Below, piece after piece: positions 1-49,839 of a DNA stretch of 64,000 bases. The stretch lies in assembly GCA_022705565.1 (NCBI GenBank), contig JAKJEF010000001.1:11748-75747 (forward strand), read 5' to 3'. The DNA is from Patescibacteria group bacterium (lineage in GTDB: Bacteria > Patescibacteriota > Minisyncoccia > UBA6257 > Colwellbacteraceae). Below the pieces are notes generated by a model, which was not told the DNA's origin, ran no database searches, and saw only the letters and a program-made list of their open reading frames with translations. Every line of letters starts with the position of its first letter. Position 1 is the first letter of the stretch. The position numbers were made by a program, and so were the translations under genes.

Positions 1-795
1 GGACTAAAAAAGCTTATTGCTACCAGTTTTTCCGGTTCGCCGATTACCGGTAAACAACTATCAATTCTTGAAATGGAGGGCCTTAAAAACGAGAAAAAGA
101 AGGAGCCGTTAAAAATCGAAATAACCGAAGTGTTGGATAGCGATAAAGACGGCGCGATAAACATTGATGATGTAAAGGAATTATTAAAACGCTGCAAGAA
201 GACCGTTACGCCCCTTAAAGGCGGTGGAGATTTTCGTAGTGAAGAATGTATAGGACTTCTTAAACAAGCCGATATTATTTGTACTAATCCGCCTTTTTCT
301 CTTTTTCGTGAATATGTCGCGCAACTTGTAGAATACAAGAAAAAGTTCCTTATTATCGGCAATGACAACGCTGTAAAATATAAAGAAATATTTCCTCTTA
401 TCGTGGAAAATAGAATTTGGCGCGGTTATACAAGAATCAAAGAGTTTAGAAGACCTAACGGTAGCTTACAAAAGTTTGGTAATGTCGGTTGGTTCACGAA
501 TCTTGATATGGCAAAACGTCACGAAAAAATCACTCTTTACAAAAAATATATAAGAAAAGAATATCCAGAATATGATAATTATGATGCGGTCGAGGTATCA
601 AAGATTTCTGAGATTCCAATGGATTATGATGGCGTGATGGGCGTTCCGATTACATTTATAGATAAATATAACCCAGATCAGTTTGAAATTATTGGTATAT
701 CAAATGGGAATAATCGTGATAAGTATGCAATAGGTAAAATGGTGACCGTAAATAATAAGTCAACCTACGCACGAATTTTAATTAAAAAGAGATAA
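1..795 (+). CDS. N6-adenine DNA methyltransferase, EcoRI-methylase-like; 5' end truncated by window edge
   Basis: Frame 1 is open from nt 1 with no stop before ORF 73..795, so the gene begins upstream of the window. It has motif IV IICTNPPF (NPPF) typical of amino-methyltransferases. Overall it looks like the M.EcoRI family. Confidence 0.6.
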   Translation, partial: GLKKLIATSFSGSPITGKQLSILEMEGLKNEKKKEPLKIEITEVLDSDKDGAINIDDVKELLKRCKKTVTPLKGGGDFRSEECIGLLKQADIICTNPPFSLFREYVAQLVEYKKKFLIIGNDNAVKYKEIFPLIVENRIWRGYTRIKEFRRPNGSLQKFGNVGWFTNLDMAKRHEKITLYKKYIRKEYPEYDNYDAVEVSKISEIPMDYDGVMGVPITFIDKYNPDQFEIIGISNGNNRDKYAIGKMVTVNNKSTYARILIKKR

Positions 796-804
796 TTTTT
801 TAAT

Positions 805-1143
805 ATGGAGTTTCTAAAAAACTTAAAATTAAATAATTGGTGGAGTCTATTAGTATACATTGGATTCTTTGGAATAATTGGCTCGCTTTTTATTAAAACC
901 GATTTTGTAGACTCTAAAAATATTTTTGGAGTTTCTCTGGGCTTTTTATTTATCGGATTATCAACGTTATCTGCGATAAAAACTGCTATTAAATTTAAAG
1001 AAGCGAACGCATATACTGGCGGACCAGCAATACTTTGTTGGCCGATAATAAAACACAATTTCTTTTCGGGATTAATAACTTTAATCGGAGCGACATTAGC
1101 TGTTATTTTTGGAACAAGAACAATTGTTAGTTTATTTTGGTAA
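805..1143 (+). CDS. small integral membrane protein (3 predicted TM helices), unknown function
   Basis: 112-aa ORF, co-oriented with the upstream gene after a 9-nt gap. Hydrophobic segments WWSLLVYIGFFGIIGSLFI, IFGVSLGFLFIGLSTLSAI and GLITLIGATLAVIFG. The antisense ORF 765..1148 is judged spurious. Confidence 0.45.
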   Translation: MEFLKNLKLNNWWSLLVYIGFFGIIGSLFIKTDFVDSKNIFGVSLGFLFIGLSTLSAIKTAIKFKEANAYTGGPAILCWPIIKHNFFSGLITLIGATLAVIFGTRTIVSLFW

Positions 1144-1149
1144 AACAAT

Positions 1150-2241
1150 ATGGAAATTAAATTACATCAAATTCCTATACGCGAGGTAATAGCCGGTTAT
1201 AAGGATAGTCAAGAAGAAGGCGTGACAGCCTATAACGATAAATTAGATATCCGGCCGAAATACCAGCGTGAGTTTGTATATAAAGAAAAGCAACGCAATG
1301 CGGTGATAGAAACAGTCAAACAAGACTTTCCACTGAACGTGATGTATTGGATGATCCGTGAAGACGGCGGCTATGAAGTTCTGGACGGCCAGCAGCGTAC
1401 TATTAGTATCGGCCAATATGTTAACGGTGACTTTTCACTAAACGAAAGGTATTTCCATAACTTAACAAAAGAAGAGCAAGATCAGATTCTGGATTACAAG
1501 TTAATGATTTATTTCTGCGAGGGTACGGATAAAGAGAGGCTGGACTGGTTTAAAATCATTAATACCGTCGGTGAACAATTGACTGAGCAGGAAATCAGGA
1601 ATGCGGTTTATACCGGACCGTGGCTCTCGGACGCTAAATTAAAGTTCTCCAAATCAAATTGTGTGGCGTATTTACTTGCAAACGATGGCGGAAAACTACT
1701 TGAGGGTTCGCCGATTCGACAGGAATATTTAGAAACCGCACTTTCTTGGATTAATAACGGAAAAATCGAAGATTATATGGCTCGTCATCAGCATGATAAA
1801 AATGCCAACGAATTGTGGGAGTATTTCCAAAACGTGATTGAATGGACGCGAAAAACTTTTCCGAATTACCGTCGCGAAATGAGCGGAGTTAATTGGGGTG
1901 ATTTATACAACGAATTTAAGGATAAGAAATTTGACACCAAAAAATTAGAAAAAGAAATAGCCGAGCTTATGGAAGATGAAGATGTTACTAAAAAGTCCGG
2001 TGTTTATCCGTATATTTTAACGAGGAAAGAAAAATATCTTTCAATTCGCACTTTTACCGATAAACAAAAAAGGGAAGCATATGAAAGACAAAATGGTATC
2101 TGTCCGATATGCAGTAAACATTTCGGAATCGAAGAAATGGAAGCCGATCATATCACGCCTTGGAGTAAAGGTGGAAAAACAATCTCAGAGAACTGCCGAA
2201 TGCTCTGCCAGAAAGACAATAGAGAAAAGAGTAATATATAG
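1150..2241 (+). CDS. DUF262 (ParB/Srx-like, GmrSD N-domain) + C-terminal HNH endonuclease
   Basis: N-terminal half carries the DGQQR motif and surrounding pattern of DUF262. C-terminus has CPICSKHF...ADHITPWSKGG...ENCRMLCQKDN, a canonical HNH (His-Me finger) with flanking Cys pairs. Only a 6-nt gap from the upstream TM gene. Confidence 0.75.
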   Translation: MEIKLHQIPIREVIAGYKDSQEEGVTAYNDKLDIRPKYQREFVYKEKQRNAVIETVKQDFPLNVMYWMIREDGGYEVLDGQQRTISIGQYVNGDFSLNERYFHNLTKEEQDQILDYKLMIYFCEGTDKERLDWFKIINTVGEQLTEQEIRNAVYTGPWLSDAKLKFSKSNCVAYLLANDGGKLLEGSPIRQEYLETALSWINNGKIEDYMARHQHDKNANELWEYFQNVIEWTRKTFPNYRREMSGVNWGDLYNEFKDKKFDTKKLEKEIAELMEDEDVTKKSGVYPYILTRKEKYLSIRTFTDKQKREAYERQNGICPICSKHFGIEEMEADHITPWSKGGKTISENCRMLCQKDNREKSNI

Positions 2242-2329
2242 TTTTTAAATTATCCAGTCTAAAATCATCTATCTAGACTGTTGAAGGGCTATTCGGGGTC
2301 GGTTTTGAAATCTGGCTGGCTCGTCTCGG

Positions 2330-2692
2330 TTAGGATTTATGTTTATTATGATCAGATAGTGGCTCGTGTTCTTCGTGTATTATTTCTCCTGTCTGATTAT
2401 CTTTAACTACTTGGTCGTATTTGTTGTTTTCTCGGTCGATTGTTTGTTCTATACTAACGCCTTTAGATAGCTTTTTATCTCCACTCGACTTATATCCAGA
2501 GAATATCTCTTTAACAAATCTTTTAAATCCGGGTCGTTTTTGTTTAATACCTAATGATGTCTGAGTTTTAATAATTGCACGAATTTCTAATTTAATAAAA
2601 TTCGGTGTTTCTTGCTGACAGTTGTCACAAAACTTAGTTTTTTTTACCGATTTACAATTTGCACAGAGCAGTTTTTTATTAAACTCTTCCAT
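2330..2692 (-). CDS. hypothetical zinc-ribbon protein
   Basis: 120-aa ORF with CANCKSVKKTKFCDNCQ (C-x2-C...C-x2-C). The remainder is K/E-rich. Lies in the low-GC block. Confidence 0.4.
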   Translation of the reverse strand: MEEFNKKLLCANCKSVKKTKFCDNCQQETPNFIKLEIRAIIKTQTSLGIKQKRPGFKRFVKEIFSGYKSSGDKKLSKGVSIEQTIDRENNKYDQVVKDNQTGEIIHEEHEPLSDHNKHKS

Positions 2693-2699
2693 TGTATTT

Positions 2700-3269
2700 T
2701 TAAAAGAAAAACTCTTTTCCGATTTGCCATAAATAACGATCTAAATCTTTAGCGTTGAATTCGGTAAGTCCATAGAACTCCTTAAATTTGTTTAATATTT
2801 CGACAAATTTTTCATATTCTTTAATGTCTTTTCTTCTAAATTCATAAAAATCATCTCGCCTGCGGAAGTGCCAAAGCACTTTTTCTATAAAAGAATCATA
2901 GATCGGATAGCGTTCCGGGTAGTGAAAACTACAATACTTTGACGCAAAGGAATAAAATTTCTTATCTCCTCTTGGAGTTTTAACCTTCGCAATCTTATCA
3001 ATAATCCTATAATCACCACGTCTTAGATCTTCGTCGATGTTAAGCTTTAAAATATGTCTTGCAACCATGAACGGATAATAGAGGTTTGTGCTGTAAGCTT
3101 GATTCAAAAAATCAACTTTTATAAGAATATGTTCTATTTTTGTATTCTTGGGATAGGTCTTTTCAAAGAGGAGTCTCAGCGCTTTATCTTGAATAACAAA
3201 GTATTCTGAACGATCCCATTTCGCAAGATAATTCTTTACTATTTGAGATGTGGGCGTGGGTATAGGCAC
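2700..3269 (-). CDS. hypothetical protein (start uncertain)
   Basis: The ORF-track start at 3362 would overlap tRNA-Gln (3328..3401), so I chose an in-frame GTG at 3269, just downstream of a TATAAT-like box. AT-rich. I recognise no domain. Confidence 0.4.
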   Translation of the reverse strand: MPIPTPTSQIVKNYLAKWDRSEYFVIQDKALRLLFEKTYPKNTKIEHILIKVDFLNQAYSTNLYYPFMVARHILKLNIDEDLRRGDYRIIDKIAKVKTPRGDKKFYSFASKYCSFHYPERYPIYDSFIEKVLWHFRRRDDFYEFRRKDIKEYEKFVEILNKFKEFYGLTEFNAKDLDRYLWQIGKEFFF

Positions 3270-3327
3270 AGCTCGATTATAGCATTTTAAGACAACCCGC
3301 CTCGGTCGCGAGAAACTGCGCTCAAAG

Positions 3328-3401
3328 TGGCTGCCGGACCTGGATTCGAACCAAGATACCATGCTCCAGAGGCATGTGTCCTACCATTAGACGATCCGGC
3401 A
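3328..3401 (-). tRNA. tRNA-Gln (anticodon CUG)
   Basis: Reverse complement folds as a cloverleaf. Acceptor stem UGCCGGA/UCCGGCA with U1-A72, G73 and an encoded CCA. D-loop AATGGTA. Anticodon stem CATGC/GCATG with loop CUCUGGA (CUG). T-arm CTTGG-TTCGAAT-CCAGG. Confidence 0.8.
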
Positions 3402-3981: not shown

Positions 3982-4566
3982 ATGGCTGACGAAGTTTATA
4001 GGCTTTCCGGTTTCTTTATCCCATTCCGGTATCTGCGGAAAGCTCTACTGTGCTGGCTCGATATAAGAGCCAGTTTCAGCGATGTGGCTCGCAAAGAACA
4101 TTGGCTAGACTGGCTGAAGCGTAAGCTTCACCAGTGGTTCATGGTTCAGAAAGTCTTGGAAATGCTAGATGCGGAAGGGAAGTGTGATCCCTTCGCGGTC
4201 AGTGCCGACTTCGACCTCGGGATCACTTTGGAGGAATGCGATAATGTAGTGGTTTTTATCGCTCCCCATTGTTGCGAAAGAATCATCCTGGAGGTTGCTA
4301 GTAAGCTGGACCTCATCTTGACGGTTGACTCTTTCTCCAAAACTTTGGAGAAGGGGACTTCTTTGATGCAGTTATACGAGAACGCCGACTGCGTTCTCGG
4401 CACCGTCGTTGATAGATCTCTGGGCACTTGTACTTGCCAAAGGCTCGCCGGTTTCGATGGAGAGCCGTGGATATTCAGGATCGAAGGTGATCGAGTCTAT
4501 CTTTCCGGTTCTCCGATCGCTAAGACGGCGTTGCAGAACATTTGTCTTGGTCTTTTCTCTTTGTAA
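3982..4566 (+). CDS. hypothetical protein (194 aa)
   Basis: Good SD (GGAGGG 8 nt upstream of ATG) and a terminator downstream. I recognise no family. Confidence 0.6.
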   Translation: MADEVYRLSGFFIPFRYLRKALLCWLDIRASFSDVARKEHWLDWLKRKLHQWFMVQKVLEMLDAEGKCDPFAVSADFDLGITLEECDNVVVFIAPHCCERIILEVASKLDLILTVDSFSKTLEKGTSLMQLYENADCVLGTVVDRSLGTCTCQRLAGFDGEPWIFRIEGDRVYLSGSPIAKTALQNICLGLFSL

Positions 4567-4644: not shown

Positions 4645-5502
4645 TCAGAAGATATCCGTCGCTTTGGGTTTTTCTCCTTCGATCTGGATGATTTCGAGTT
4701 TCAATTTGCCGGTTTCATTGATTTTCGATTTCAAAAGTTTGACGCGTTTTCCGTTCAATATCGTCCAAGCTCCGGGTTCCGGATAAAAAGCCCGGATTTT
4801 ATTATGAATCTTTTTCGCCAACTCCGTATTTCCGGATTTGGCCGAAATTAAATCCTTTTCTTCGATAAAAGCCGATTCTGTTTTAAACTTTTCCGTGAAA
4901 GTCGCTTTGGTTTCGTCTTGGATTTCGGGGGTGATTTTTCCGTCAATAATGTCCGGCAATATTTCGACAAGCATTTTCGAAGAAAGCTCGGCCAGCTTTT
5001 CGGTTAAGGTTTCGCTGTTGTCGTCCGGATCGATCGGAATGGTTTTTTGCCGGAGAACCGGACCGTGATCCATCAAAGCGTCGATCAGGAAAAGCGATAC
5101 CCCGGTTCGGGTTTTGCCCTCTAGAATCGCGCTTTGAATGGGAGAGGCGCCACGAAGCTCCGGAAGTAAGGAGGGGTGAACGCCGACAACGCCCAAGCGG
5201 GGAATATCGATCAATTCTTGGGGCAGGATTTTGGCGTAAGCCGCAACAAGGTAAAAATCCGCCGGAATGGATTTAAGTGTTTCCAAGAACTCTGGTGTGA
5301 TCTTTTCTGGCTGGAGAATTTTAATGTTTTTTCCGGAATCGAGGACGATTTGCTTGGCCGGCGGGGGAGTGATCACGCGCTTCCGGCCAATCGGCTTGTC
5401 TAGACTCGCCACCACCGCTTTGGGAACAAAGCCGGCTTTGACGAGGTTTTTTAGGATAATGGCCGCGAATTCCGGCGTACCGAAGAAAACGAAATTATTC
5501 AT
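4645..5502 (-). CDS. fmt: methionyl-tRNA formyltransferase
   Basis: N-terminus MNNFVFFGTPEFAAIIL (the G-T-P-E-F-A signature) and formyltransferase core HPSLLP. I set the start at the internal ATG (5502) because the ORF-track N-terminal extension would overlap the upstream gene. Confidence 0.9.
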   Translation of the reverse strand: MNNFVFFGTPEFAAIILKNLVKAGFVPKAVVASLDKPIGRKRVITPPPAKQIVLDSGKNIKILQPEKITPEFLETLKSIPADFYLVAAYAKILPQELIDIPRLGVVGVHPSLLPELRGASPIQSAILEGKTRTGVSLFLIDALMDHGPVLRQKTIPIDPDDNSETLTEKLAELSSKMLVEILPDIIDGKITPEIQDETKATFTEKFKTESAFIEEKDLISAKSGNTELAKKIHNKIRAFYPEPGAWTILNGKRVKLLKSKINETGKLKLEIIQIEGEKPKATDIF

Positions 5503-5524
5503 TAAGAAAGAATCGGAAAAATCG

Positions 5525-7732
5525 TCATTCGGATTTCTTGAAGATATTGACGATACTTCCCATAAATTTATCGAGTTTTTCCAAATAGCTTCCTTCCGGC
5601 GGCCCTTCTTCGCGTATGCCGGTACCGAAGACTCTAACAATAGTTTCTTTAATGTCGGAATCGAGGAAACAGGAAGGATCGGGATTCGGAGCATCGTCTC
5701 TATTCCTGCATATCAGGGAATAAGTAGTGGTTCTTTGGGGAGCCACTCTTTCCGAGCTTCGAGAAGATAGGGGATTGTTTCCGGTTCTAGAAGAAGCATC
5801 ACCGGAGACAATGCCCATATTGCAGGAAATAGCGGTAGCAGAGCCTAGATATGGAGCCGAAGAATCCCAGTTAAGGGTAGAATACTTCCTGATCATTATA
5901 TCTTCGGAAGAATAGAGAATTTCCGTAGGAAGGGCGGTAAAGGTGACTTCCGGTTTTCCGACAACTCGGATTTGGGTTTTTCTCGCGCGGGAAGCGGAAC
6001 GGTCGTAGCAGTCGCGATCTTGTCCGATGACATCTCTTTTGCAGTTTTGTCCGTTCGGATCGCAATCGTAAGGTTCTCCGTAAATATCGGTATAAGTGCA
6101 GCATTCGTAATCGAGTTCGCATTGCATTCCGTATTCGGTGGTTCTTCCGGGATTGACGATGTCTTCTCCTCTGGAAGAAGTCTTCGCGGTCCAGTTTCCA
6201 CAAAGAGAATGGCAGGTGATTTCTTCGTTTTCTTTTCTTTCTCCCGAACCGCAGCTTGTGCTCGAAGAAGCTCTCCAAGTGACGGTCGCCTGGTTATCCG
6301 TCGCGGTAACGCATTGGTTCTCGTTGTCTTCGACCGTCAAAGTCAGTCCGGAACCGGTATCGGGCGGAAGAGTGCAGGTTGAGGACCCGGGACGACAGGA
6401 AGGTAAACAAGGACCCAAATCAGCATAACAAGTTCCGTATTTGGCCTTACATTGTTCTTCCGATTCGAATCTCGTGCTCAAGCAACTGTAAATCGGATCG
6501 CAGCGATAGAACTGCGTCAGGCTGCCTTCACATTCTTCTCTCGTTGAATAACATTTCTCGAAAGTTTCTTCGCATTCGTCTTTGTTTACAAAGGAGCCGG
6601 CGGGAACGCAAGAGCCAATATCCGGATTGAAGCGCCAGAACTCGTTTCCGAAAAACTTTCCCGAAGAACAATCCTCGTATTTTTTATCTTTCGGTCCGAA
6701 ACACTCGAATCCAGTTCCGTTTGCGCACTCCAGAGAGCTTGTGTATTTTCCTTTCTGGGGAACAAGGGTTTTATCTTCACAGGTATAGATATCTCTACAA
6801 AGATAAGAACATTCTTCTTTGGTTAAGCCGGCCCACAGGGTTTTATTGTTCACATAAATGCTCGCGAGATTGGGGTCGATACCAAAGTCGCTAAGAGTGC
6901 TGTATTTGCAGTTTTGCGACACATCACAGAAGAAAGGAATAGGATCGGGCGGAGGAGTCGGTTTACAGATACTCGCGCATTCTTCCGGATTAATAACAGC
7001 TCCTTTTTTCCATTCGCTGTGACTTCCGGCCGGGCAGACTCCTTCGGGAGGCGGGTAATTATCATTGGTTTCTCCGTGATAAGGAACCGAAGAGACAGGT
7101 TCCGTTGTGTGGTTGTCACAGCAGCATTTGTAGAAATTACCTGAACCTCCGGTGCAGGATCCGGCCCAAAGACCTTGGTTATCTGCTAAACATTGGTTGG
7201 AAGAACCTTGATCGGTGCACTTGTCGGCAGTGGAGTAAAGACGAGAGGTAATGCGGTAAAGATAAGATCGAATAAATCCCCATGGAGACCTATCAACACA
7301 TTCTTCAATTTGATATTTACTCCACGGAGAAAGCTTATTAGTTGTAGCTAAAGATAAACCCTGTAAAGTTTTTGCCGCTTGACCGCAAGAAATTCCCGGA
7401 CAGCCGTTAGTACTATTGACGCTATACGAAGTAGAACAAGTATTGTATGGATGGCAACCTTCTTGTCCTCCGGAATCTTGCCATAATTTCCATTGTCTTT
7501 GATACCATATTTCTTCTTCCAATGAATCCAATACGTTGCTATCCGATGGAATATATGTTTCCGGAACCTCGTCATAAGAAACACACTCGTCGCCTCGGCA
7601 CAGTCTCCCGTTTATGCATTGAAAATAACTATCTGGAGGGAAGTCTCCTTCCAAACATTGTTCTTGGGCGAAAACCAAATTAAAAGAGAAGGCACCAATA
7701 AGGAAAATTGTTAAAAAGACGAGCTTTTTCAT
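5525..7732 (-). CDS. large secreted cysteine-rich protein (735 aa, signal peptide, about 50 Cys, two Ig-like modules); family not recognised
   Basis: Signal peptide MKKLVFLTIFLIGAFSFNLVFA-QEQC. Cysteines throughout (KCCC, YECC etc). Modules QATVTWRASSSTSCGSG...RTTEYGMQC and STLNWDSS...AISC...RTTTYSLICRN. Paralog at 45009..47258. Confidence 0.85.
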   Translation of the reverse strand: MKKLVFLTIFLIGAFSFNLVFAQEQCLEGDFPPDSYFQCINGRLCRGDECVSYDEVPETYIPSDSNVLDSLEEEIWYQRQWKLWQDSGGQEGCHPYNTCSTSYSVNSTNGCPGISCGQAAKTLQGLSLATTNKLSPWSKYQIEECVDRSPWGFIRSYLYRITSRLYSTADKCTDQGSSNQCLADNQGLWAGSCTGGSGNFYKCCCDNHTTEPVSSVPYHGETNDNYPPPEGVCPAGSHSEWKKGAVINPEECASICKPTPPPDPIPFFCDVSQNCKYSTLSDFGIDPNLASIYVNNKTLWAGLTKEECSYLCRDIYTCEDKTLVPQKGKYTSSLECANGTGFECFGPKDKKYEDCSSGKFFGNEFWRFNPDIGSCVPAGSFVNKDECEETFEKCYSTREECEGSLTQFYRCDPIYSCLSTRFESEEQCKAKYGTCYADLGPCLPSCRPGSSTCTLPPDTGSGLTLTVEDNENQCVTATDNQATVTWRASSSTSCGSGERKENEEITCHSLCGNWTAKTSSRGEDIVNPGRTTEYGMQCELDYECCTYTDIYGEPYDCDPNGQNCKRDVIGQDRDCYDRSASRARKTQIRVVGKPEVTFTALPTEILYSSEDIMIRKYSTLNWDSSAPYLGSATAISCNMGIVSGDASSRTGNNPLSSRSSERVAPQRTTTYSLICRNRDDAPNPDPSCFLDSDIKETIVRVFGTGIREEGPPEGSYLEKLDKFMGSIVNIFKKSE
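7400..7732. repeat. dispersed repeat: 5' coding region of the Cys-rich gene, paralogous to about 46930..47258
   Basis: By-eye alignment of 7561..7660 with 47081..47180 gives roughly 75% nucleotide identity. The encoded N-termini are nearly identical. Confidence 0.55.
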
Positions 7733-7739
7733 TGAAATA

Positions 7740-7745
7740 AGTATA
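7740..7745 (-). promoter_or_regulatory. putative -10 box (TATACT) 7 nt upstream of the Cys-rich gene ATG; leaderless-type start
   Basis: Minus-strand sequence TATACT-TATTTCA-ATG. The identical arrangement (TATAAT-TATTTCA-ATG) precedes the paralog at 47258. No SD is present. Confidence 0.35.
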
Positions 7746-7792
7746 GCATTTTTAAATAAAAAGACCCCCGCTTTTTAGAAAAAAAGCAAGGG

Positions 7793-8479
7793 TCAATAGC
7801 TTAGGGACTGAACAATAGAAATAACGATCGAGTCAAGGAGGTTGATAGCTTCCGGATATACCCCAACCAGAATGACAGCGTCAACTCCTTCTCCCCAGTC
7901 GTTGGTGAGGGGACGACTACCCAAAGTGCCGATTATCGTATTAGCCGGCACTTTAATACTACCAGGAAGTCTTGCGGCTTCATCCTCTGTCTCGATGATA
8001 CTAGCGTTAGCAATCTGTTCGGCTAACTCGCTAGTAAGTTGAACACCAAATAGTGCAAGCTCCCAACCGCTTCCGTAAACAACAAGGCATTCTTCCGAGT
8101 CTGGTTTGTTATCCTTTTCTTCGGGCAGAGCGTCCCAGATACCTTGACACAGAACGACATCAACATTCACCGATACCTCATTTTTCTCGAGCGATCCCTC
8201 CGGCGACTTATAGGTAATAGTGAACGCAAAAGCATTGAGGGGCTTTGCTACAGCCTCTCCTTTCTCGCTGAAGCTCACTAGCTTCAGTTTGGGTTCTGCG
8301 GGTTTCGGATCAACAGAATCAGGCTTCACCGGATCTTCGGGTTTAACCGGATCTTTCGCGGTCGGAGTAACACTAGAAGTTGGTGGAAAGCTCTGAAATA
8401 CCGACAAAACAGCAAAAAGAAAAAACACGATGATCAGAACCAATGCGACAATCCTCGTCCTATTCTTTCTTCCTTTCAC
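7793..8479 (-). CDS. N-terminally membrane-anchored protein (228 aa), partner of the Cys-rich gene
   Basis: GTG start preceded by GAGGAGG. Single TM segment IVALVLIIVFFLFAVLSVF, then a Pro/Lys/Asp-rich linker and a C-terminal domain. Positional analog of 47349..47912. Confidence 0.6.
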   Translation of the reverse strand: MKGRKNRTRIVALVLIIVFFLFAVLSVFQSFPPTSSVTPTAKDPVKPEDPVKPDSVDPKPAEPKLKLVSFSEKGEAVAKPLNAFAFTITYKSPEGSLEKNEVSVNVDVVLCQGIWDALPEEKDNKPDSEECLVVYGSGWELALFGVQLTSELAEQIANASIIETEDEAARLPGSIKVPANTIIGTLGSRPLTNDWGEGVDAVILVGVYPEAINLLDSIVISIVQSLSY

Positions 8480-8583
8480 TTCTCGCTAGCCTCCTCTCTT
8501 CAAGATTGTCTGCAGTTGTGAAATTAACTGCTTATGATTTTTTCATAGCATAAACAGGGAAGATTGTCAAAATATCCGGTTTT

Positions 8584-9042
8584 CTAATCTTTGTGATCGG
8601 CGATCAATGTGCCGTTCAGATGATCGGTTTCGTGCTGGAATATTCTTGCGAGTAATCCCCAGGCTTTGATTTTCAGTTTTTTGCCGTTTTTATCCTGTCC
8701 GACAAGCGTTACTTGGTAAGGTCGTTTGATGCTTTTTTCCATTTCGGGAACGCTCAAGCATCCTTCTTCGCATTCGTCCATTTGCTTCGAAACACTCGTA
8801 ATTTCCGGATTGAAAATAACGTAAAACTTGCCTTCGTTCTGGGCGACGAACATCCGCCAGTCCAAACCGATCTGATTCGCCGAAAGCCCGACGCCTTTGT
8901 TCTCCTGCATCAACTTCCGCATTTTTTTGGCAACTTCGGCAATCTTCTTTTTGTCGGCTTTCTTGAAATCGAAATCCGGCACCCGTCCGTGAAGGATCTT
9001 GGCTTCGGATTTTTTATCTTCTACGGTGACTATCTTCATCAT
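8584..9042 (-). CDS. def: peptide deformylase
   Basis: Motifs GVGLSANQIG, EGCLSVP and QHETDHLNG (the HExxH metal site). Confidence 0.9.
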   Translation of the reverse strand: MMKIVTVEDKKSEAKILHGRVPDFDFKKADKKKIAEVAKKMRKLMQENKGVGLSANQIGLDWRMFVAQNEGKFYVIFNPEITSVSKQMDECEEGCLSVPEMEKSIKRPYQVTLVGQDKNGKKLKIKAWGLLARIFQHETDHLNGTLIADHKD

Positions 9043-9331
9043 CTTTTTCTTTTTGCCAGATGGCCATGAAATAGGCCCCTTTGTTCTTGATGTTCTTTTT
9101 CTCGGCGATCGATTTGGCGAGGCTCAAAAGCCTGTCTTCGTTAAACTCCTTCGCCAATTTGATATATAAGGATTTGTGGGCTCTATCGTCAAGGAGCTCG
9201 GCCATTTCGAGGCCGACCAACTGGTGTCGGGTGTAAACCCGGGATTCTTTGGCCCTTTCCTTTATTTTCCGGAAATAATCCGCGAAATCCCGCTTTTTTT
9301 CCTTTTTCCGGCCGGTTTTCATCGATTCCAT
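9014..9331 (-). CDS. hypothetical protein (105 aa)
   Basis: The ORF overlaps the def start by 29 nt and diverges from thpR with only 15 nt between start codons. No recognised domain. The start may lie further in. Confidence 0.35.
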   Translation of the reverse strand: MESMKTGRKKEKKRDFADYFRKIKERAKESRVYTRHQLVGLEMAELLDDRAHKSLYIKLAKEFNEDRLLSLAKSIAEKKNIKNKGAYFMAIWQKEKDDEDSHRRR

Positions 9332-9333
9332 TA

Positions 9334-9339
9334 TATAAT
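9334..9339 (+). promoter_or_regulatory. putative -10 box (TATAAT) 7 nt upstream of the thpR ATG
   Basis: ccattaTATAATactctcgATG, with no SD. Confidence 0.35.
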
Positions 9340-9346
9340 ACTCTCG

Positions 9347-9910
9347 ATGGATAAAAGAGTCTTCGCGGGAATCAATCTTCCTTTGGAAACAAAAGCAAAA
9401 ATCGAAGCGGCTTTGTTCGAAGCCGAACCTTTATGGAAGGGGATTATAAGCCCGAGAATCCTGGATCGGGAAAACTGGCATATCACTATGGGGTTTTTCG
9501 GGAAGAAAAGCGAGGCGGAGATCGAGCTTATCAAAGAAGCGATCGAAGAAACCGCCTCGGCTTTTCCTTTGCCGGAAATAAAATTAAAAAGAATCGTCTT
9601 TGGTCCGACCAAGGCTCGTGAAGCGAGAATGATCTGGCTCGAAGTCGAATCTAAAGATCTCAAGAATGTCAAAGAATCTTTCGATCGAAATCTCGAAAAA
9701 CGCGGAGTGATTTTGGAAAACAAAAAGTTTTCTCCGCACATCACTTTGGCGAGATTCGAGCCGATAGATTTCGACCGTTTACCACCTCTTAAAAAAGAAG
9801 TCGATCTCGATTTCCGGGCAAAGTCTCTTGATCTTATGGAGTCCGTATTATCGAGCAAAGGATCGACTTATACCTTGATTTCGGAAATAGACTTTGGAGG
9901 GGTAAAATAG
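9347..9910 (+). CDS. thpR: RNA 2',3'-cyclic phosphodiesterase / 2'-5' RNA ligase family (LigT/ThpR)
   Basis: Two H-x-T-x motifs (HITMGFFG and HITLARF). Start set at the internal ATG 9347 (MDKRVFAGINLP); the ORF-track 5' extension is judged non-coding. Confidence 0.8.
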   Translation: MDKRVFAGINLPLETKAKIEAALFEAEPLWKGIISPRILDRENWHITMGFFGKKSEAEIELIKEAIEETASAFPLPEIKLKRIVFGPTKAREARMIWLEVESKDLKNVKESFDRNLEKRGVILENKKFSPHITLARFEPIDFDRLPPLKKEVDLDFRAKSLDLMESVLSSKGSTYTLISEIDFGGVK

Positions 9911-44207: not shown

Positions 44208-44957
44208 TTATATTTTAGCATTTTTAACAAGCTTTGCGAATTCCCCGGGATCGATGCTTGCCCGGCCGGCCAAAACTCCGTCGATCGGTTTTTGGGCGAA
44301 GATCTCGCGGATATTCGAGCCGTCGACCGATCCCCCATAAAGAACTTTTGGTTTCGGGAGACCGAAGAACTCCTTGAGGGTCGATTTCATGTGGTTTATG
44401 AGTTCGGCACTGCTCTCCGGATCGTCGGCCTCTTCCGCTCCGACGGCCCAAACCGGTTCGTAAACAAAAACGATTTTCGATATAAGGCTGTGTTCTGTGC
44501 CGGCGATGATCTGCCGCAGCTGATCCTTGAGATAGATTTTGACGAGATCCAATCCTTTCCGTCTGATGGCCGTCGATTCGCCGACGCAAAGAATAGGTCT
44601 TATTCCAGCTTCGAAACATTTCTGAATTTTCTTGGCGATGATCTCTTCGTTCTCAAAAAAATATTCCCGGCGCTCGGAATGACCCACTATCGCGTATTTC
44701 ACTCCCAAGGAATAGAGCATTTTCGCGGAGAACTCTCCGGTCAAAGCCCCGTTTTCGGCCCAAGAGACGTTCTGGCCGGCCAGATACTTGGCGCGTTTTT
44801 TGAAGGCCGCATCGCCGAGATACGGCGTTGGCACGGCTGCCAGAAAATCGATCGATTTATTTTTGGATATTACCGTAAGAGATCGGCTGAGCAAAGACCT
44901 GGCCTCCGCAATCGTCTCCGGATTCATCTTCCAATTGGCGACAATCAGTTTTTTCAT
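44208..44957 (-). CDS. tpiA: triose-phosphate isomerase
   Basis: VANWKMN start, IAYEPVWAIG-type motif EPVWAVGA, GGSV. Confidence 0.9.
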   Translation of the reverse strand: MKKLIVANWKMNPETIAEARSLLSRSLTVISKNKSIDFLAAVPTPYLGDAAFKKRAKYLAGQNVSWAENGALTGEFSAKMLYSLGVKYAIVGHSERREYFFENEEIIAKKIQKCFEAGIRPILCVGESTAIRRKGLDLVKIYLKDQLRQIIAGTEHSLISKIVFVYEPVWAVGAEEADDPESSAELINHMKSTLKEFFGLPKPKVLYGGSVDGSNIREIFAQKPIDGVLAGRASIDPGEFAKLVKNAKI

Positions 44958-45008
44958 AATGTTAAGTATAACAAAAATCCCGCCTTTCGCGGGATTCGAA
45001 TGTTTCCC

Positions 45009-47258
45009 CTATTCCGGAAGATCCAAAAACCCGTTAATGATTTGACCGATCTTTTTACCGAATCCTTCGAGATAGGTCTGCGGCCCCGGTTCTTCTATGC
45101 CCGCTCCGAATACCCTGACGGTCGCGTTTTCCGTTTCCGAATCCGAATAGCAAGTTTCCGGCTCTTCGTCGTCGCTGTTCCGGCATTGAAGCGTATAAAT
45201 GGTGGTTCTCGAAGGAGACACCGTGCGGGAACCGCTTTGGTTCAAACCAGCCGCCTCCGAAGTTCCGTCGTCCCTAATGACGGCACAGGAAGTCGTTATC
45301 GGAAAATCGAATTGATTCTCTAAAGAAGTCCAACTAAGAGTCGAGAACTTATTGTATCCGGATTCAGCCACTCTGTTTTCGGCGGTATAGAGAATATCCA
45401 CTGGATCGGCGGTGAAGCTTTGGATAACGGGTTTAGGGACCACTCGTATCGATGTTTTGGCGATTCCCGTGGAAGCAGCGTGTTCGTCGTCGCAAATAGT
45501 GATGGCGCGGGTGCAGGTTTCGCAAACTCTTTCTTGTTCTTCTCCGACGCAATTGCAACTGTAGTCCTCGTCTTCTTCCCAACAGCACCTATAGGCGGCC
45601 CGGGTGCAGGAAATGCCGTATTCGGTGGTTCTATCCGCAGAAACCGCGACGCTGCCGCTTTCGACGCTCGGAGACGGCATATTGCAACTGACACAGGAGA
45701 ACCTGTTGTTGGAAGGCTCCTCGCCTTCGCCGCAGCTGTTACCGATACCTATTTCCCAAGAGAGCGTCGACTGGTAATTTAGAGATCTTATGGGAACGCA
45801 TTGCGGATCGGCTTCGAGAGAGACCGCAATATCGTCTCCGGAGCCTGTTTCCGGAAGATTGCAGGAAATTACCCCAGAAGTTCTGCAGGCGGAAGAACAA
45901 GATCCGAAATCCGAATAGCAAACCTTTTCTTCGTCGCCTTGCTCGCATTCTTCTCCCGATAGATAATTCCCGCTCGAGCATCCGCCTGCGGGATTGCACC
46001 AATAATATTGACCAAGGCCTTCCGGAGGGCACTCGGCTTCACAGTCGTTGCTCACGCGATAGCATTTTCCATGCATGGTGTTTTCGCAGGATTCCGAATC
46101 GGAAAAAGTCTGGGAAGTTTTGCTGCAGTCATACGAAGGAGCGGCACAGTAATAATAGGCGGATTGGCCCGGCGAGATTCCTTCGGCGAGACATTGTTCA
46201 TAGATAAGATCTTCTTTTTTGAAACAATACACTCCTTCGCCGACGAGGCAGTCGTCGTGGTTCGTATATTTTCCCTTGACCGAAACCGGAACCGAATCTT
46301 TGCAGACATAAAGATCGCCGCAAAGATAATTACATTCCGGTTTCGTCAATCCGGACTTCAAGACTCCGTTATGCTCGAAAGTGGTGGCAAGATGCGGAGA
46401 AATCCCGAGTGCCTCCAAAGTCTCGTGTCTACAATTTTGCGTAAGATCGCAAAAAAGAGGAGGGTCGACCGGAAGGGTCGGCTTGCAGATATTTTGGCAT
46501 TCGCTCGGATCGATCGAAGCTCCGGATCTCCATTTGACCGAACTTCCGGCCGGACAAGCTCCTTCCAAGGGTGGATAGCTGTCATTCGTTTCTCCGTAAT
46601 ACGAAACCGAAGAAACAGATTCCATTGTTTGATTGTGGCAGCAGCATTTATAGAAATCCCCGACACTTCCTTCGCATGAACCGGTCCAAAGGCCTTTGTT
46701 CTCTTCGCCAGCAAGACATTGATTGGAAGAATCTATATTAGTGCATTTGTCGGTAGTGGAATAGAGACGAGAAGTGATACGGTAAAGATAATAAGATACG
46801 GGACGAAAAAATGTGTCGTTTCCTATAAACGAAGATTTGCACTCCTCGATTTGATATTTACCCCAAGGATTCAAGTTGGCGGTCGACAGACCCAACTCGC
46901 TTGATTTTTGGCCGCAAGAAGACCCCGGACATCCATTGGTGCTGTCTACGCTATACGATGTTGAGCAAGTGGTATAGGGATGACAGCCTGTCTGCCCTCC
47001 GGTATCTTGCCACAGCGTCCACTGCCTTTTATACCATATTTCTTCTTCTTGCGAATCGAGCACCTGATCTGAAGGAAGGTATGTTCTCGGAACTTCGTCA
47101 TAGGAAACGCATTCGTTTCCTTGGCAGATTTGACCGTTCACGCATTGGAAATAGCTGTCCGGAGGAAAATCTCCTTCAAAGCATTGGGCTTTAGCGGTGC
47201 GGAAGCTTATCAAAAAAAATCCAGATATCAAAAAGGTGAAAAAGAGAATCTTTTTCAT
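45009..47258 (-). CDS. large secreted cysteine-rich protein (749 aa), paralog of 5525..7732
   Basis: Signal peptide MKKILFFTFLISGFFLISFRTAKA-QCFEGDFPPDSYFQC. Shared motifs with copy 1 (YLYRITSRLYSTTDKCT; STLSWEIGIGNSCGEG...RTTEYGISC; STLSWTS...TTSCAV...RTTIYTLQCRN; RVFGAGIEEPGP). Confidence 0.85.
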   Translation of the reverse strand: MKKILFFTFLISGFFLISFRTAKAQCFEGDFPPDSYFQCVNGQICQGNECVSYDEVPRTYLPSDQVLDSQEEEIWYKRQWTLWQDTGGQTGCHPYTTCSTSYSVDSTNGCPGSSCGQKSSELGLSTANLNPWGKYQIEECKSSFIGNDTFFRPVSYYLYRITSRLYSTTDKCTNIDSSNQCLAGEENKGLWTGSCEGSVGDFYKCCCHNQTMESVSSVSYYGETNDSYPPLEGACPAGSSVKWRSGASIDPSECQNICKPTLPVDPPLFCDLTQNCRHETLEALGISPHLATTFEHNGVLKSGLTKPECNYLCGDLYVCKDSVPVSVKGKYTNHDDCLVGEGVYCFKKEDLIYEQCLAEGISPGQSAYYYCAAPSYDCSKTSQTFSDSESCENTMHGKCYRVSNDCEAECPPEGLGQYYWCNPAGGCSSGNYLSGEECEQGDEEKVCYSDFGSCSSACRTSGVISCNLPETGSGDDIAVSLEADPQCVPIRSLNYQSTLSWEIGIGNSCGEGEEPSNNRFSCVSCNMPSPSVESGSVAVSADRTTEYGISCTRAAYRCCWEEDEDYSCNCVGEEQERVCETCTRAITICDDEHAASTGIAKTSIRVVPKPVIQSFTADPVDILYTAENRVAESGYNKFSTLSWTSLENQFDFPITTSCAVIRDDGTSEAAGLNQSGSRTVSPSRTTIYTLQCRNSDDEEPETCYSDSETENATVRVFGAGIEEPGPQTYLEGFGKKIGQIINGFLDLPE
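46930..47258. repeat. dispersed repeat partner of about 7400..7732
   Basis: See 7400..7732. Confidence 0.55.
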
Positions 47259-47265
47259 TGAAATA

Positions 47266-47271
47266 ATTATA
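47266..47271 (-). promoter_or_regulatory. putative -10 box (TATAAT) 7 nt upstream of the ATG of Cys-rich gene copy 2
   Basis: Minus strand TATAAT-TATTTCA-ATG, identical spacing and spacer to copy 1. Confidence 0.35.
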
Positions 47272-47348
47272 TCATAGACAAACGATAACCCTCGTTTTCA
47301 AAGAAATAAGGATTATCAAAAAAAGATTGGGGTAAAGTTTTGACGAGC

Positions 47349-47912
47349 TTAAAGCCCCAATTTGTCTTTAATGTAAAGATTGGTATTCGAATAAACCGTG
47401 CCCGGGAACAGGGCTTGGTTCTCGATACTCACGATCAGGTTATAATCTCCGAAAACATCAACCGTGTTTTCCGAAACATATCCCAAAAGATCCCCTGTCT
47501 GCACTTCGGGGTTTTGATTCGCATCGGATAAAGGATTCGCGATAACGTTGACGGTAATGAGGCCGGAGGTCGAATTCGGGATGACAAAATGACGCAGTAA
47601 AATACCGGAATAAGGACTGTTGGGATTGGTCGGGTTATCCATGAATATCGGCGTTGCCGATCCGTCCGTCGGAGCGAAAACCGGCGCTCCCGCCGGAATC
47701 TTAAATCCCAGAATCGGATCCCTCGCTTCTTCAAAATAAATAAACTTGGCCGTGGAGCAGTATCTTTCTTCGACCAACAAGCAGGTTCCCGGCTTCGACA
47801 TTCCCGAAGAAAAGAGCCTGAACGAAGTGAATAACCCTTCTCTCCAGGCGACGAAAATACCGACCGCGAGAACAAGGAGAACGATTAGAATTATTTTTAA
47901 GGATTTGGACAT
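47349..47912 (-). CDS. N-terminally membrane-anchored protein (about 187 aa), partner of Cys-rich gene copy 2
   Basis: Start set at the internal ATG (MSKSLKIILIVLLVLAVGIFVA), 32 nt after the mrdA stop. Single TM anchor then extracytoplasmic domain. Positional analog of 7793..8479. Confidence 0.5.
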   Translation of the reverse strand: MSKSLKIILIVLLVLAVGIFVAWREGLFTSFRLFSSGMSKPGTCLLVEERYCSTAKFIYFEEARDPILGFKIPAGAPVFAPTDGSATPIFMDNPTNPNSPYSGILLRHFVIPNSTSGLITVNVIANPLSDANQNPEVQTGDLLGYVSENTVDVFGDYNLIVSIENQALFPGTVYSNTNLYIKDKLGL

Positions 47913-47943: not shown

Positions 47944-49839
47944 TCATTCCGCTGAAACGTCTCCCGTTGCCGAGTCCACGGACCTTCCCACCCGGTTCTT
48001 ATAATACCAATCGAGCACATCGCGGCCTATCGGAACGGCGTTCGTCGTGCTGGTTTTGGCATTTTCCGCGAGCACCAAAACGCAGATCGACGGATAGTCC
48101 TCGATCGGTATCGGCCCGCAGCCGACAAAAATGGCGTTAATTTTCTTGTTGTCCAAAACCGAGGCGCTTCCGGTTTTGGCGACGCTCTTGTAATCGAGAT
48201 CCGCCAAACTGGTGCAGGTGCCGTAAGATTTGTAAATCGCGTCCGACATTCCTTTCAATGTTGTCTGCATTTCCGGCTCGAGATAAGAAATATCGCGGAC
48301 TATCTCCGGCTCGCTTCCGGCAACGATATGCGGTTTGTAGACCAAGCCGTTGTTAACGATCGCGGCGTAGGCCCGGATAAGCTCGAGAAGACTGATTTTC
48401 AAGTCTCCGTGTCCGATGGAAACCTGGTAAGTGTCTCCCAATCTCCAGGCGATGCCGGTTCTTTCTTTCTGGGTCGAAGGAGAAGGAATGAATCCGGTCG
48501 CCTCTCCCGGAATCTCCACGCCGGTTTTCTCGTTGAATCCGAAAAGCTTCAAATATTTCTCGATCAAAGGCATACCCAGTCCCTTGAAATCGGTTTCGCC
48601 CTGGATCAAATCTTCATTATACGGCAAGCCGCCTCCCACGGCGTAGAAAAAAATGTTGCTCGAGCGTGCGATAGCGGCATAAAGATCGACCCAACCGTGC
48701 GGCTTCCAATCCGGAAAAAGGGTCGGCTGATCCGGATAATACGGATTCGGCACCTCGAGCACTCCCGAAGAATAAACAAGATCGCTCGGTTTGATGACTC
48801 CTTCTTTCAGGGCGGCGACGGACAAGAAAGGTTTCACGGTCGAAGCCGGGCTGTATTTTCCCATGACCGGCCGGTTGAGGATCGGACTCTTCGGATCGTT
48901 CAAGAGATTGGGTATTTCGTCGAGGGTGAAGCTCGGATAGCTGATGAGGCTCAAGATCTCGCCGGTTTTCGGATCAAAGGCGATGCCGGCGCCTCCTTCC
49001 CGAAGATCCAAATCATTGATTCCTTTTTCGAGCCGCCAGTAAAAATATTCCTGAAGCTCGGCGTCGATCGTCGTTTTGAGGTCGTTTCCGATTTTCGGCT
49101 CGGTCAAAGATTTTTCTTCCAAAGATTCTCCTTTGACGTTACGCCTGACGATCGTTCGGCCGTTCACTCCCCGCAGGCTTTCGTCGAAGGCCGCTTCGAG
49201 TCCGGTCTTTCCGACGGTGTCGCTTCCCGTAAGGCCGCGTTTCTTGATGTCGTCGGCCGTCACGAGACCGGTGTAGCCCACCACGTGGGCAAAAGACTCG
49301 TCGAATTCCCTTTTGAAATCGTCGGCCACGAAAAGCGAATTCAAGCCCATAGCTTTCAGATCTATGGCCTCAGAATTGGAAATGTCTTTTTTGATCAAAA
49401 CCGTATCCGTCTCCTGAAGATTGCTCTGATTCAATATGGAAAAAAGCTTGTTTTGGTCGACGCCGAGCTTGGCCAAGGCTTCAAGCACCGGAGACATTTC
49501 GTTTTGCTTGACGAGCTCGGCCGGCCGCAGATAAACGCTAAGTATCGGTGTGTTTTCCACGATCGGTTTTCCGTAGCGGTCGAAGATGATCCCCCTTGGC
49601 GCCGATTCGATAATCACTTTGTTGATGTTCGCATCCGCGCGTTCGGCGTAGGCCTTGTTTTTGACGATACTCAAAAATCCGGTCCGAAAGAAAACCAGAC
49701 CTCCGATCGCGGCCGCCACCAGACCAAGTCCCAGGAATATCCGCCTATCCAAATCTTTTTCGGTCACGGAAAAACCCCTCGAGGATTCGGTGTCCAGGGT
49801 GACTTCGTCAAAATTGATTTCGTGAAATCCTTTTTTCAT
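47944..49839 (-). CDS. mrdA: penicillin-binding protein 2 (peptidoglycan D,D-transpeptidase)
   Basis: Motifs STVKPF (SxxK), RSSN (SxN), AKTGSAS (KTG). N-terminal TM anchor. Sits in the mreBCD context. Confidence 0.85.
   Translation of the reverse strand: MKKGFHEINFDEVTLDTESSRGFSVTEKDLDRRIFLGLGLVAAAIGGLVFFRTGFLSIVKNKAYAERADANINKVIIESAPRGIIFDRYGKPIVENTPILSVYLRPAELVKQNEMSPVLEALAKLGVDQNKLFSILNQSNLQETDTVLIKKDISNSEAIDLKAMGLNSLFVADDFKREFDESFAHVVGYTGLVTADDIKKRGLTGSDTVGKTGLEAAFDESLRGVNGRTIVRRNVKGESLEEKSLTEPKIGNDLKTTIDAELQEYFYWRLEKGINDLDLREGGAGIAFDPKTGEILSLISYPSFTLDEIPNLLNDPKSPILNRPVMGKYSPASTVKPFLSVAALKEGVIKPSDLVYSSGVLEVPNPYYPDQPTLFPDWKPHGWVDLYAAIARSSNIFFYAVGGGLPYNEDLIQGETDFKGLGMPLIEKYLKLFGFNEKTGVEIPGEATGFIPSPSTQKERTGIAWRLGDTYQVSIGHGDLKISLLELIRAYAAIVNNGLVYKPHIVAGSEPEIVRDISYLEPEMQTTLKGMSDAIYKSYGTCTSLADLDYKSVAKTGSASVLDNKKINAIFVGCGPIPIEDYPSICVLVLAENAKTSTTNAVPIGRDVLDWYYKNRVGRSVDSATGDVSAE

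Follow-up and report, generated by a model that had tools for sequence, protein, structure and literature searches.

Large Cys-rich extracellular proteins have been described in Peribacteria, members of the candidate phyla radiation (CPR); they carry a signal peptide, contain about 7% Cys and are uncharacterised, and a role in attachment has been suggested for them (Anantharaman et al. 2016, PMC4736985). These proteins have a mean length of 1655 aa, are encoded in a 14-gene cluster, and are weakly similar to Myxococcus Cys-rich repeats or FG-GAP (PMC4736985). Much of bacterial diversity belongs to the Patescibacteria, whose members live attached to other cells; apart from type IV pili, almost nothing is known of their surface molecules. 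Here we analyse a family of large Cys-rich proteins, designated BIG, two members of which are encoded in a stretch of 64,000 nucleotides (the window) from a Patescibacteria group bacterium (GenBank assembly GCA_022705565.1, contig JAKJEF010000001.1, positions 11,748 to 75,747 of the forward strand); identical or near-identical public proteins are named Candidatus Colwellbacteria. Judged from their sequences, BIG members are predicted to be Sec-exported, disulfide-rich, extracytoplasmic proteins consisting of a head, a stalk and a base. The best reading of the data, which we hold at a little less than even confidence, is that BIG is a surface-displayed binding protein held by membrane-anchored partners, termed X and Y.

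The genes and intergenic regions concerned are located as follows.

4645..5502, minus strand: fmt, methionyl-tRNA formyltransferase (Pfam Formyl_trans_N, 7e-35), downstream flank of the insertion
5525..7732, minus strand: BIG-1 (A1), predicted secreted protein of 735 aa with 50 Cys
7733..7792, minus strand: intergenic control region between BIG-1 and Y, with a terminator-like hairpin and an extended -10 box
7793..8479, minus strand: Y (B1), 228 aa, GTG start
8480..8583, minus strand: Y promoter and leader, brought in by the insertion
8584..9042, minus strand: def, peptide deformylase (Pfam Pep_deformylase, 6e-41), upstream flank of the insertion
45009..47258, minus strand: BIG-2 (A2), paralog of BIG-1, 749 aa with 54 Cys
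47259..47348, minus strand: intergenic region between X and BIG-2, with an extended -10 box and a hairpin
47349..47912, minus strand: X (B2), 187 aa, N-terminal transmembrane (TM) helix and putative degenerate LytM/M23-like domain

The list of open reading frames (ORFs) and the Pfam searches confirmed the positions given for BIG-1, Y, def and fmt in a preliminary description of this DNA, and the feature is real and correctly located. The large gene is indeed duplicated: BIG-2 is 46% identical to BIG-1 over the full length (BLASTP), and 49 of the 50 Cys residues of BIG-1 are aligned to Cys in BIG-2. No third copy was found in the window, in which BIG-1 and BIG-2 rank as the most Cys-rich long ORFs. 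The description was largely right except in treating the two loci as a "paralogous pair", since the small upstream proteins B1 and B2 (Y and X) show no BLASTP similarity and are members of different families. BIG-1 is, as described, Cys-rich (50 of 735 residues, 6.8%) and free of internal TM segments, its sole hydrophobic window comprising residues 2–23. Its N-terminus, MKK-LVFLTIFLIGAFSFNLVFA followed by QEQC, is compatible with a Sec signal: the junction reads MKK, hydrophobic region, VFA and then QEQC, with V-x-A at -3/-1. The proposed secretion is supported to the extent that this signal-like N-terminus, judged by eye, is followed by no further hydrophobic segment.

Five regions can be delimited along the BIG-1 polypeptide.

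Residues 1-23: predicted signal peptide
Residues ~24-262: conserved Cys-rich head with the motifs YSTADKC, FYKCCC and PPPEGVCPAG
Residues 316-446: three 6-Cys beta-beta-alpha-alpha modules (316-357, 363-403, 406-446) of ~40 residues each
Residues 463-591 and 595-703: two Ig/PKD-like sandwiches
C-terminus: motif I.E..P, then an amphipathic helix (716-734)

The AlphaFold2 model of BIG is usable for residues 315–703, with a predicted local distance difference test (pLDDT) score of ~55–85, and shows the 6-Cys modules (pattern YYxC..sC..Y..CE..CY..C..C), the sandwiches and the terminal helix. The Ig-like sandwiches that had been anticipated in the C-terminal half are both present in this model (463–591 and 595–703), and residues 463–703 have an Ig-like / PKD / FnIII beta-sandwich fold, with fold matches that include Gram-positive Ig-stalk adhesins (MSCRAMMs, Cpe0147-type) and intimin/invasin. 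A profile of the 6-Cys module (A9) matched nothing significantly in PDB.

Across 20 family members (670–1059 aa) the alignable parts are the head and the base; the middle is variable and contains fn3, InlB-B-repeat and Ig inserts. The head is defined by the motifs W..Y, CS[TI]ADK, L.AG.C.C, YK.CC and PP.EG.CP, and the conserved C-terminal base closes with [IL].E..P and the amphipathic tail, whose helix is kept family-wide (hydrophobic moment, muH, ~0.5–0.9). Between BIG-1 and BIG-2, identity reaches 66–75% in the head and 34–41% in the stalk, and the head is recognisable in distant members. The proteins P0014 and P0017 retain the base with a different N-terminus, and P0055 has the head on another chassis; therefore, head and base are separable modules. 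The S..DK residues of the head were evaluated as a possible Ser-Lys catalytic dyad, which is unsupported, since the homolog P0016 has Ala and Arg there.

Known means of surface anchoring were sought as well. Both BIG-1 and BIG-2 lack an LPXTG motif and a TM segment at the C-terminus. BIG-2 contains LPETG at residue 468, but this motif is internal, lies at the start of the first beta-sandwich, has no TM segment behind it and is not conserved in homologs; it was therefore not accepted as a sortase signal and is probably a chance match. Regular expressions for a lipobox Cys and for a class III pilin signal (G|FTLxE) found neither at the N-termini of BIG, X and Y, and N_methyl had no Pfam match in the module proteins. 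Searches of Pfam and NCBIfam revealed no SLH, LysM, SH3b, PGRP, CHAP, amidase or other known wall-binding or hydrolase domain in BIG. BIG also differs from S-layer proteins, having no such domain and about 7% Cys, while SLH proteins typically contain few or no Cys residues. No candidate DsbA/MdbA/VKOR-type gene (TM helix plus CxxC) was present in the window, which is part of the genome; genes for an MdbA-like oxidoreductase with VKOR are common in CPR bacteria (bioRxiv 10.1101/335083).

The large protein had been called unrecognised, and no homology to a characterised family emerged: searches of Pfam, NCBIfam, PHROGs and PADLOC gave no match to BIG, and PDB gave no significant sequence match. 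Weak matches to DUF406/YiiS, MisL, OppC_N and DUF7430, all scoring far below threshold, were discarded. Only 7 clusters were recovered when 5.8 billion proteins were searched with a word index, two of them being gene-call truncations of full-length ORFs, and a profile search of 1.84 billion cluster representatives recovered 61 proteins at E<=1e-3 (35 at E<=1e-10), most full-length members being 670–1060 aa long. All proteins with a named source are annotated as "hypothetical protein" and belong to Patescibacteria. The family is small (61 cluster representatives) and, in the databases searched, restricted to Patescibacteria; Colwellbacteria carry 2–3 paralogs per genome. For scanning GTDB representatives the 20-sequence alignment was too divergent, and a 7-sequence alignment was used, which located only 4 loci. 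In the metagenome-assembled genome (MAG) JAKPNH (L011, L012 and L013) every BIG gene sits at a contig end; BIG paralogs apparently break metagenome assemblies, and the family is therefore probably under-counted in MAG-based surveys. Searches of PHROGs, PADLOC, phage genomes and IMG/VR gave nothing significant for the module proteins, the one PHROG matched by X (E 0.096, not significant) being without known function, and no toxin, defence or phage domain was found in the module. Large Cys-rich secreted CPR proteins are already known as a general kind, while the literature searched contains no description of the BIG family, its head and 6-Cys domains or its fixed LytM-like neighbour.

The X and Y families were found by reading the neighbours of BIG homologs. 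Both have an N-in/C-out topology with one TM helix, and the membrane-anchored partner reported upstream of BIG-1 proved to be Y, which consists of a basic N-terminus, a TM helix (~residues 10–29), a P/K/D/E-rich linker and a ~150-aa ectodomain ending in VPANTIIGTLG..PLTNDWGEG, without His. A homologue search with Y returned Y alone, and its relatives were read from neighbouring loci: they are 202–228 aa long, share the Pro-rich linker and the motif VPAGTvIGTvG..PLkNDWGeG, lack His and were seen in Colwellbacteria only. No match to Y was found in PDB or Pfam.

X is 176–191 aa long in Colwellbacteria, and B2 contains a conserved Cys pair (CLLVEERYC) and, in the degenerate LytM/M23-like domain, LGF.IPAGAPVFAPTDG ... 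TGDLLGY ... NLIVSIE. A profile of 12 X sequences matched PDB 5kqb ("Peptidase M23"), which we take to be active LytU of Staphylococcus aureus, with E 3.6e-5 and 27 bits, and 9 of the 12 members have weak matches to Pfam Peptidase_M23 (PF01551; best E 8e-4), all below the gathering score. In the alignment with 5kqb the catalytic His is replaced by Asp and the catalytic Asp by an invariant Gly; X contains a single His and neither an HxH nor an HxxxD motif. With its zinc ligands missing, X is predicted not to be an active M23 peptidase, and it is probably LytM-like and best described as a membrane-anchored degenerate LytM protein. X is recognisable beside distant BIG homologs: L006 has two X-like copies (hhalign probability 95% for X versus the L006 neighbour), L009 has three, and an X-like C-terminal fragment precedes BIG in L008.

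The linkage between these small genes and BIG is without exception. Wherever DNA upstream of BIG is available (11 places), the gene immediately preceding BIG is X-like or Y. These places are the two window loci, L001, L003, L004, L005, L006, L008 (fragment), L009, L011 and L013, and the finding agrees with the proposed pairing of BIG with a TM-anchored partner. The order is X, one to three copies of Y, and BIG in L001, L003, L004 and L013, and Y–BIG in L005 and L011, although the L005 contig begins inside Y and X could be present farther upstream. Locus 1 of the window is Y–BIG and locus 2 is X–BIG; since relatives carry X–Y–BIG, the window genome has one incomplete version per locus. The hairpin remnant preceding BIG-2 has a 3' arm that matches the L013 terminator located after Y, an indication that locus 2 lost Y by deletion.

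Three tandem, near-identical Y copies, each preceded by a repeat of ~100 bp, stand before one BIG gene in L003 (7893–9945; also in L010), while the sister assembly L002 has one Y copy and a gap, which indicates either copy-number variation or assembly collapse. In L004 (5460–8106) and L001 (1–603), the relatives carrying the BIG-1 ortholog, two ~415-aa pilin-like proteins (N_methyl + Laminin_G_3) are encoded between murE and X–Y–BIG, and a functional link between them and the cassette is possible. A conserved multi-TM protein of 108–126 aa, absent from the window, is encoded directly after BIG in the same loci (L004 11863–12189, L001 4295–4675).

BIG-2 occupies what we term the ancestral syntenic position, mreB-mreC-mreD-pbp2-X-(Y)-BIG-tpiA-SIMPL; PBP2 is encoded at 47944–49839 of the window, and the same mreB-mreC-mreD-pbp2 context is found in L002, L003 and L013. 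The cassette follows ftsI-murE and the two pilin-like genes in L004 and L001, and stands directly after a Mur-ligase gene in L009; in L005 an Amidase_2 gene is located two genes downstream of BIG. The remaining contexts are unrelated (def/fmt, an ABC-F ATPase, radical-SAM or M16 genes). Peptidoglycan-synthesis genes are thus neighbours in 3 of 7 independent gene contexts, a link that is only suggestive, since these genomes are compact.

The regulatory elements predicted around Y and BIG are also conserved. Upstream of Y there are, in order, TTGACA, 14 nt, TGCTATGAA, a CATAAGCAGT..ACAACTGC element, a GGAGG Shine–Dalgarno sequence and the GTG start; these elements are kept in L003, L004, L011 and L013, and less well in L001. 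The CATAAGCAGT-(loop)-ACAACTGC leader element, located between the promoter and the Shine–Dalgarno sequence, could form a small hairpin and has no match in Rfam. Y is followed by a terminator-like hairpin (~7763–7794; 14 bp, then TTTTTATTT; z -5.3), and an extended -10 box, TGCTATACT, lies at 7748–7740, exactly 7 nt before the ATG of BIG-1; the corresponding box of BIG-2, TGATATAAT, is likewise 7 nt from its ATG. The layout of a hairpin and an extended -10 box before BIG recurs in all Colwellbacteria loci examined (L001, L003, L004, L005, L011 and L013). The pattern TGnTATAMT, 7 nt, ATG has three matches in the window against 0.01 expected.

7730-7748, minus strand: extended -10 site before BIG-1
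47256-47274, minus strand: extended -10 site before BIG-2
44955-44973, minus strand: extended -10 site before tpiA

This spacing predicts that the BIG transcript would be leaderless or near-leaderless. Together with plain TATAAT-N7-ATG arrangements at the divergent starts of orf105 and ligT (9320–9335, minus strand; 9334–9349, plus strand), it also makes leaderless transcription seem a general feature of the genome. With a terminator-like hairpin and a promoter predicted between them, Y and BIG-1 would not form one simple operon. The fmt gene starts 22 nt past the BIG-1 stop with no terminator between, so that its transcription probably now begins at the BIG promoter, which is foreign to the def-fmt operon.

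That the Y–BIG-1 pair had been wedged between def and fmt was well borne out by comparison with related genomes. In the closest relatives, L014 and L015, whose def, fmt and neighbouring S41 protease are 97%, 82% and 92% identical to those of the window, def and fmt are separated by 3 bp, and in nine more distant loci (L016–L020, L023, L024, L027 and L028) the gap is at most ~80 bp (~0.5 kb in L019). A block of 3.08 kb (5503–8583) in the window is bounded exactly by the stop codon of def and the start codon of fmt. Because the two genes are adjacent in all 11 related loci, the block is a lineage-specific insertion. L004 comes from the same sample as L014 and carries the BIG-1 ortholog (~65% identity by tblastn; 70% over the truncated gene call P0002) after ftsI-murE, the two pilin-like genes, X and Y; with def and fmt contiguous in L014, the module was moved or copied into the def/fmt junction in the lineage of the window. 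The block 5503–8583 is a complete, portable expression module made up of promoter, leader, Y, terminator, promoter and BIG.

Some features of the surroundings may be mentioned. Positions 1–3400 are of low GC content (33–39% versus ~48%) and encode a type IV restriction enzyme (GmrSD/HNH) and an EcoRI-type adenine methylase whose gene is truncated by the window edge; this stretch adjoins tRNA-Gln(CTG) (3328–3401), ~1.2 kb from the insertion site, and looks like a zone of genome plasticity. Between the tRNA gene and fmt, a 194-aa ORF (3982–4566, plus strand; 4.6% Cys, no Pfam match) is only 42% identical in a relative whose neighbouring genes are 82–97% identical, and appears from this difference to be fast-evolving.

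Taken together, these observations are best accommodated if BIG is displayed at the cell surface. It would be retained there through its base, that is, the two Ig/PKD-like sandwiches, [IL]xExxP and the C-terminal amphipathic helix, and this base would find its docking site in the ectodomains of the small N-in/C-out proteins encoded upstream, X and, in Colwellbacteria, also Y; the amphipathic helix could additionally, or instead, lie on the membrane. A stalk of variable length, composed of 6-Cys modules and Ig-like repeats, would present the conserved head outward, and the head would bind a ligand rather than catalyse a reaction. The degenerate LytM proteins EnvC, NlpD and SpoIIQ act by binding partner proteins, and by analogy docking of BIG on X is plausible. 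Of the "cell-surface or partner-attachment apparatus" suggested earlier, surface display would thus be kept as the best reading, while attachment to a partner cell is more conjectural, the head being the most conserved part of the protein.

A number of observations weigh against surface display as outlined. Surface retention and the contact of BIG with X or Y are inferred, not observed directly. The tail of BIG is insufficiently hydrophobic for a TM anchor, and the protein could therefore simply be released. The terminator between Y and BIG implies that the two genes would not be strictly co-expressed. Residues 13–313, comprising the head, are modelled with pLDDT <50, the head profile (A7) has no relative in PDB, and head sequences gave only scattered single-member matches in Pfam (E>=0.05); strong conservation of the head would also be unusual for a host-specific adhesin. 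The AlphaFold2 model of X, built from a 7-sequence alignment, is unusable (pLDDT 40), so that the LytM assignment comes from sequence profiles which score below the Pfam gathering threshold. A relation of Y to LytM is unproven: the hhalign probability between the X and Y profiles is 48% at best (E 1.8e-4), and that between Y and single distant X-like proteins is <=5%.

Alternatively, the cassette could be a cell-wall module in which X and Y are degenerate-LytM regulators or scaffolds of peptidoglycan remodelling and BIG is a wall-associated partner, structural or enzymatic, acting on the bacterium's own envelope in elongation or division, by analogy with the activation of amidases by EnvC and NlpD or the scaffolding of a trans-envelope complex by SpoIIQ. 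We regard this as rather unlikely, although several findings point to it: the position directly after mreB-mreC-mreD-pbp2 (window, L002, L003 and L013), after ftsI-murE (L004 and L001) or a Mur ligase (L009), the Amidase_2 gene two genes downstream in L005, the LytM-like nature of X, and a conserved head that would suit a conserved self ligand such as peptidoglycan. However, the neighbourhoods vary (def/fmt, ABC-F ATPase, radical-SAM or M16 genes), adjacency is weak evidence in tiny, tightly packed genomes, BIG lacks a recognisable wall-binding or hydrolase domain, and an Ig-stalked protein with 25 disulfides is unlike known parts of the divisome or elongasome. A narrower proposal, which overlaps surface display and differs only in naming the ligand, is that BIG is an adhesin whose head binds a surface molecule of a host bacterium or archaeon, with paralogs providing different specificities. 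The architecture of distal domain, Ig-like stalk and basal anchor is that of bacterial adhesins, Colwellbacteria have 2–3 paralogs per genome, the family is limited to Patescibacteria, and attachment has been proposed for large Cys-rich secreted CPR proteins (PMC4736985). The head nevertheless speaks against diversifying host recognition, as it is the best-conserved region between the paralogs (66–75% versus 46% overall) and remains recognisable across distant members, and we consider a host-specific adhesin unlikely.

It is improbable that BIG is a released factor, secreted to the medium as a toxin, as part of a matrix or for scavenging or binding, with X and Y as unrelated neighbours or immunity or maturation factors. 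Such a role would agree with the lack of a TM anchor, LPXTG signal, lipobox and SLH domain, with the separate promoter of BIG and the terminator dividing it from Y, and with a disulfide content typical of stable extracellular proteins, but the family-wide conservation of the C-terminal module and amphipathic tail and the invariable adjacency of X-like genes over deep divergence argue for a cell-associated complex, and no toxin, defence or phage domain was found. The least probable explanation, effectively refuted by the conservation data, is a lineage-specific junk insertion or decaying duplicate. The def/fmt position is unique to this lineage and lies 1.2 kb from tRNA-Gln and a low-GC restriction-modification islet; yet the frames, which the preliminary description had allowed might prove disrupted, are both intact, 49 of 50 Cys are shared with the paralog, BIG-1 is ~65% identical to its ortholog in L004 (70% over the truncated call P0002), conservation extends to the promoter, leader and terminator elements, and across Patescibacteria homologs are found beside the same neighbour.

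Surface display of BIG could take a more specific form, which we consider speculative and somewhat doubtful: Patescibacteria may have a non-covalent display system in which the empty substrate groove of a membrane-anchored dead LytM protein serves as a socket for the base and helix of BIG, and the previously undescribed head (STADK/YKxCC/PPxEGxCP) is a contact organ for the host or for the bacterium's own wall. If true, these bacteria would have a means of anchoring other than sortase, S-layer or lipoprotein attachment, and it would be encoded as a self-contained, transposable expression module. The data define a Patescibacteria-only family with its domain boundaries, a conserved head and a 6-Cys module without known relatives, its obligate dead-LytM neighbour is a testable candidate for protein display on a wall-bearing, single-membrane envelope, and the def-fmt operon offers a clean case of insertion of a self-contained gene module. 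The family being small and its function inferred, we consider it a good lead rather than a surprise.

Among known systems, BIG belongs by its properties with the large Cys-rich extracellular proteins of CPR bacteria, a descriptive class and not a homology family. By description, it resembles the Peribacteria proteins in its predicted signal peptide, Cys content of ~7%, predicted extracellular location and CPR origin, but it is much smaller and has its own head, 6-Cys module, C-terminal base and fixed LytM-like neighbour. SpoIIQ of Bacillus subtilis, EnvC and NlpD are degenerate LytM proteins without zinc ligands. X resembles LytU (5kqb), its best PDB match, in that an extracytoplasmic M23-like domain comes after an N-terminal TM helix, and it resembles SpoIIQ, EnvC and NlpD in the missing zinc ligands, so that X would be expected to bind a partner rather than cleave peptidoglycan. 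In contrast to the known LytM cases, the similarity of X is weak (27 bits, below the Pfam gathering score), its partner would be a Cys-rich secreted protein instead of an amidase or SpoIIIAH, and no FtsEX-type or SpoIIIA-type genes are located near X or BIG. With MSCRAMMs, Cpe0147-type adhesins and intimin/invasin, BIG shares a distal functional domain, a tandem Ig-like stalk and a basal anchoring element; it differs from them in its very high disulfide content and in the lack of LPXTG, a beta-barrel anchor and isopeptide or thioester motifs. Anchoring of BIG, if any, would be non-covalent, by a partner protein or the amphipathic helix. E. coli PBP5 and PBP6 have C-terminal amphipathic membrane-binding helices, and BIG, likewise predicted to be exported, has behind its last globular domain a predicted short, mildly basic amphipathic helix, which, in contrast to those of PBP5 and PBP6, could equally be a docking peptide for X or Y.

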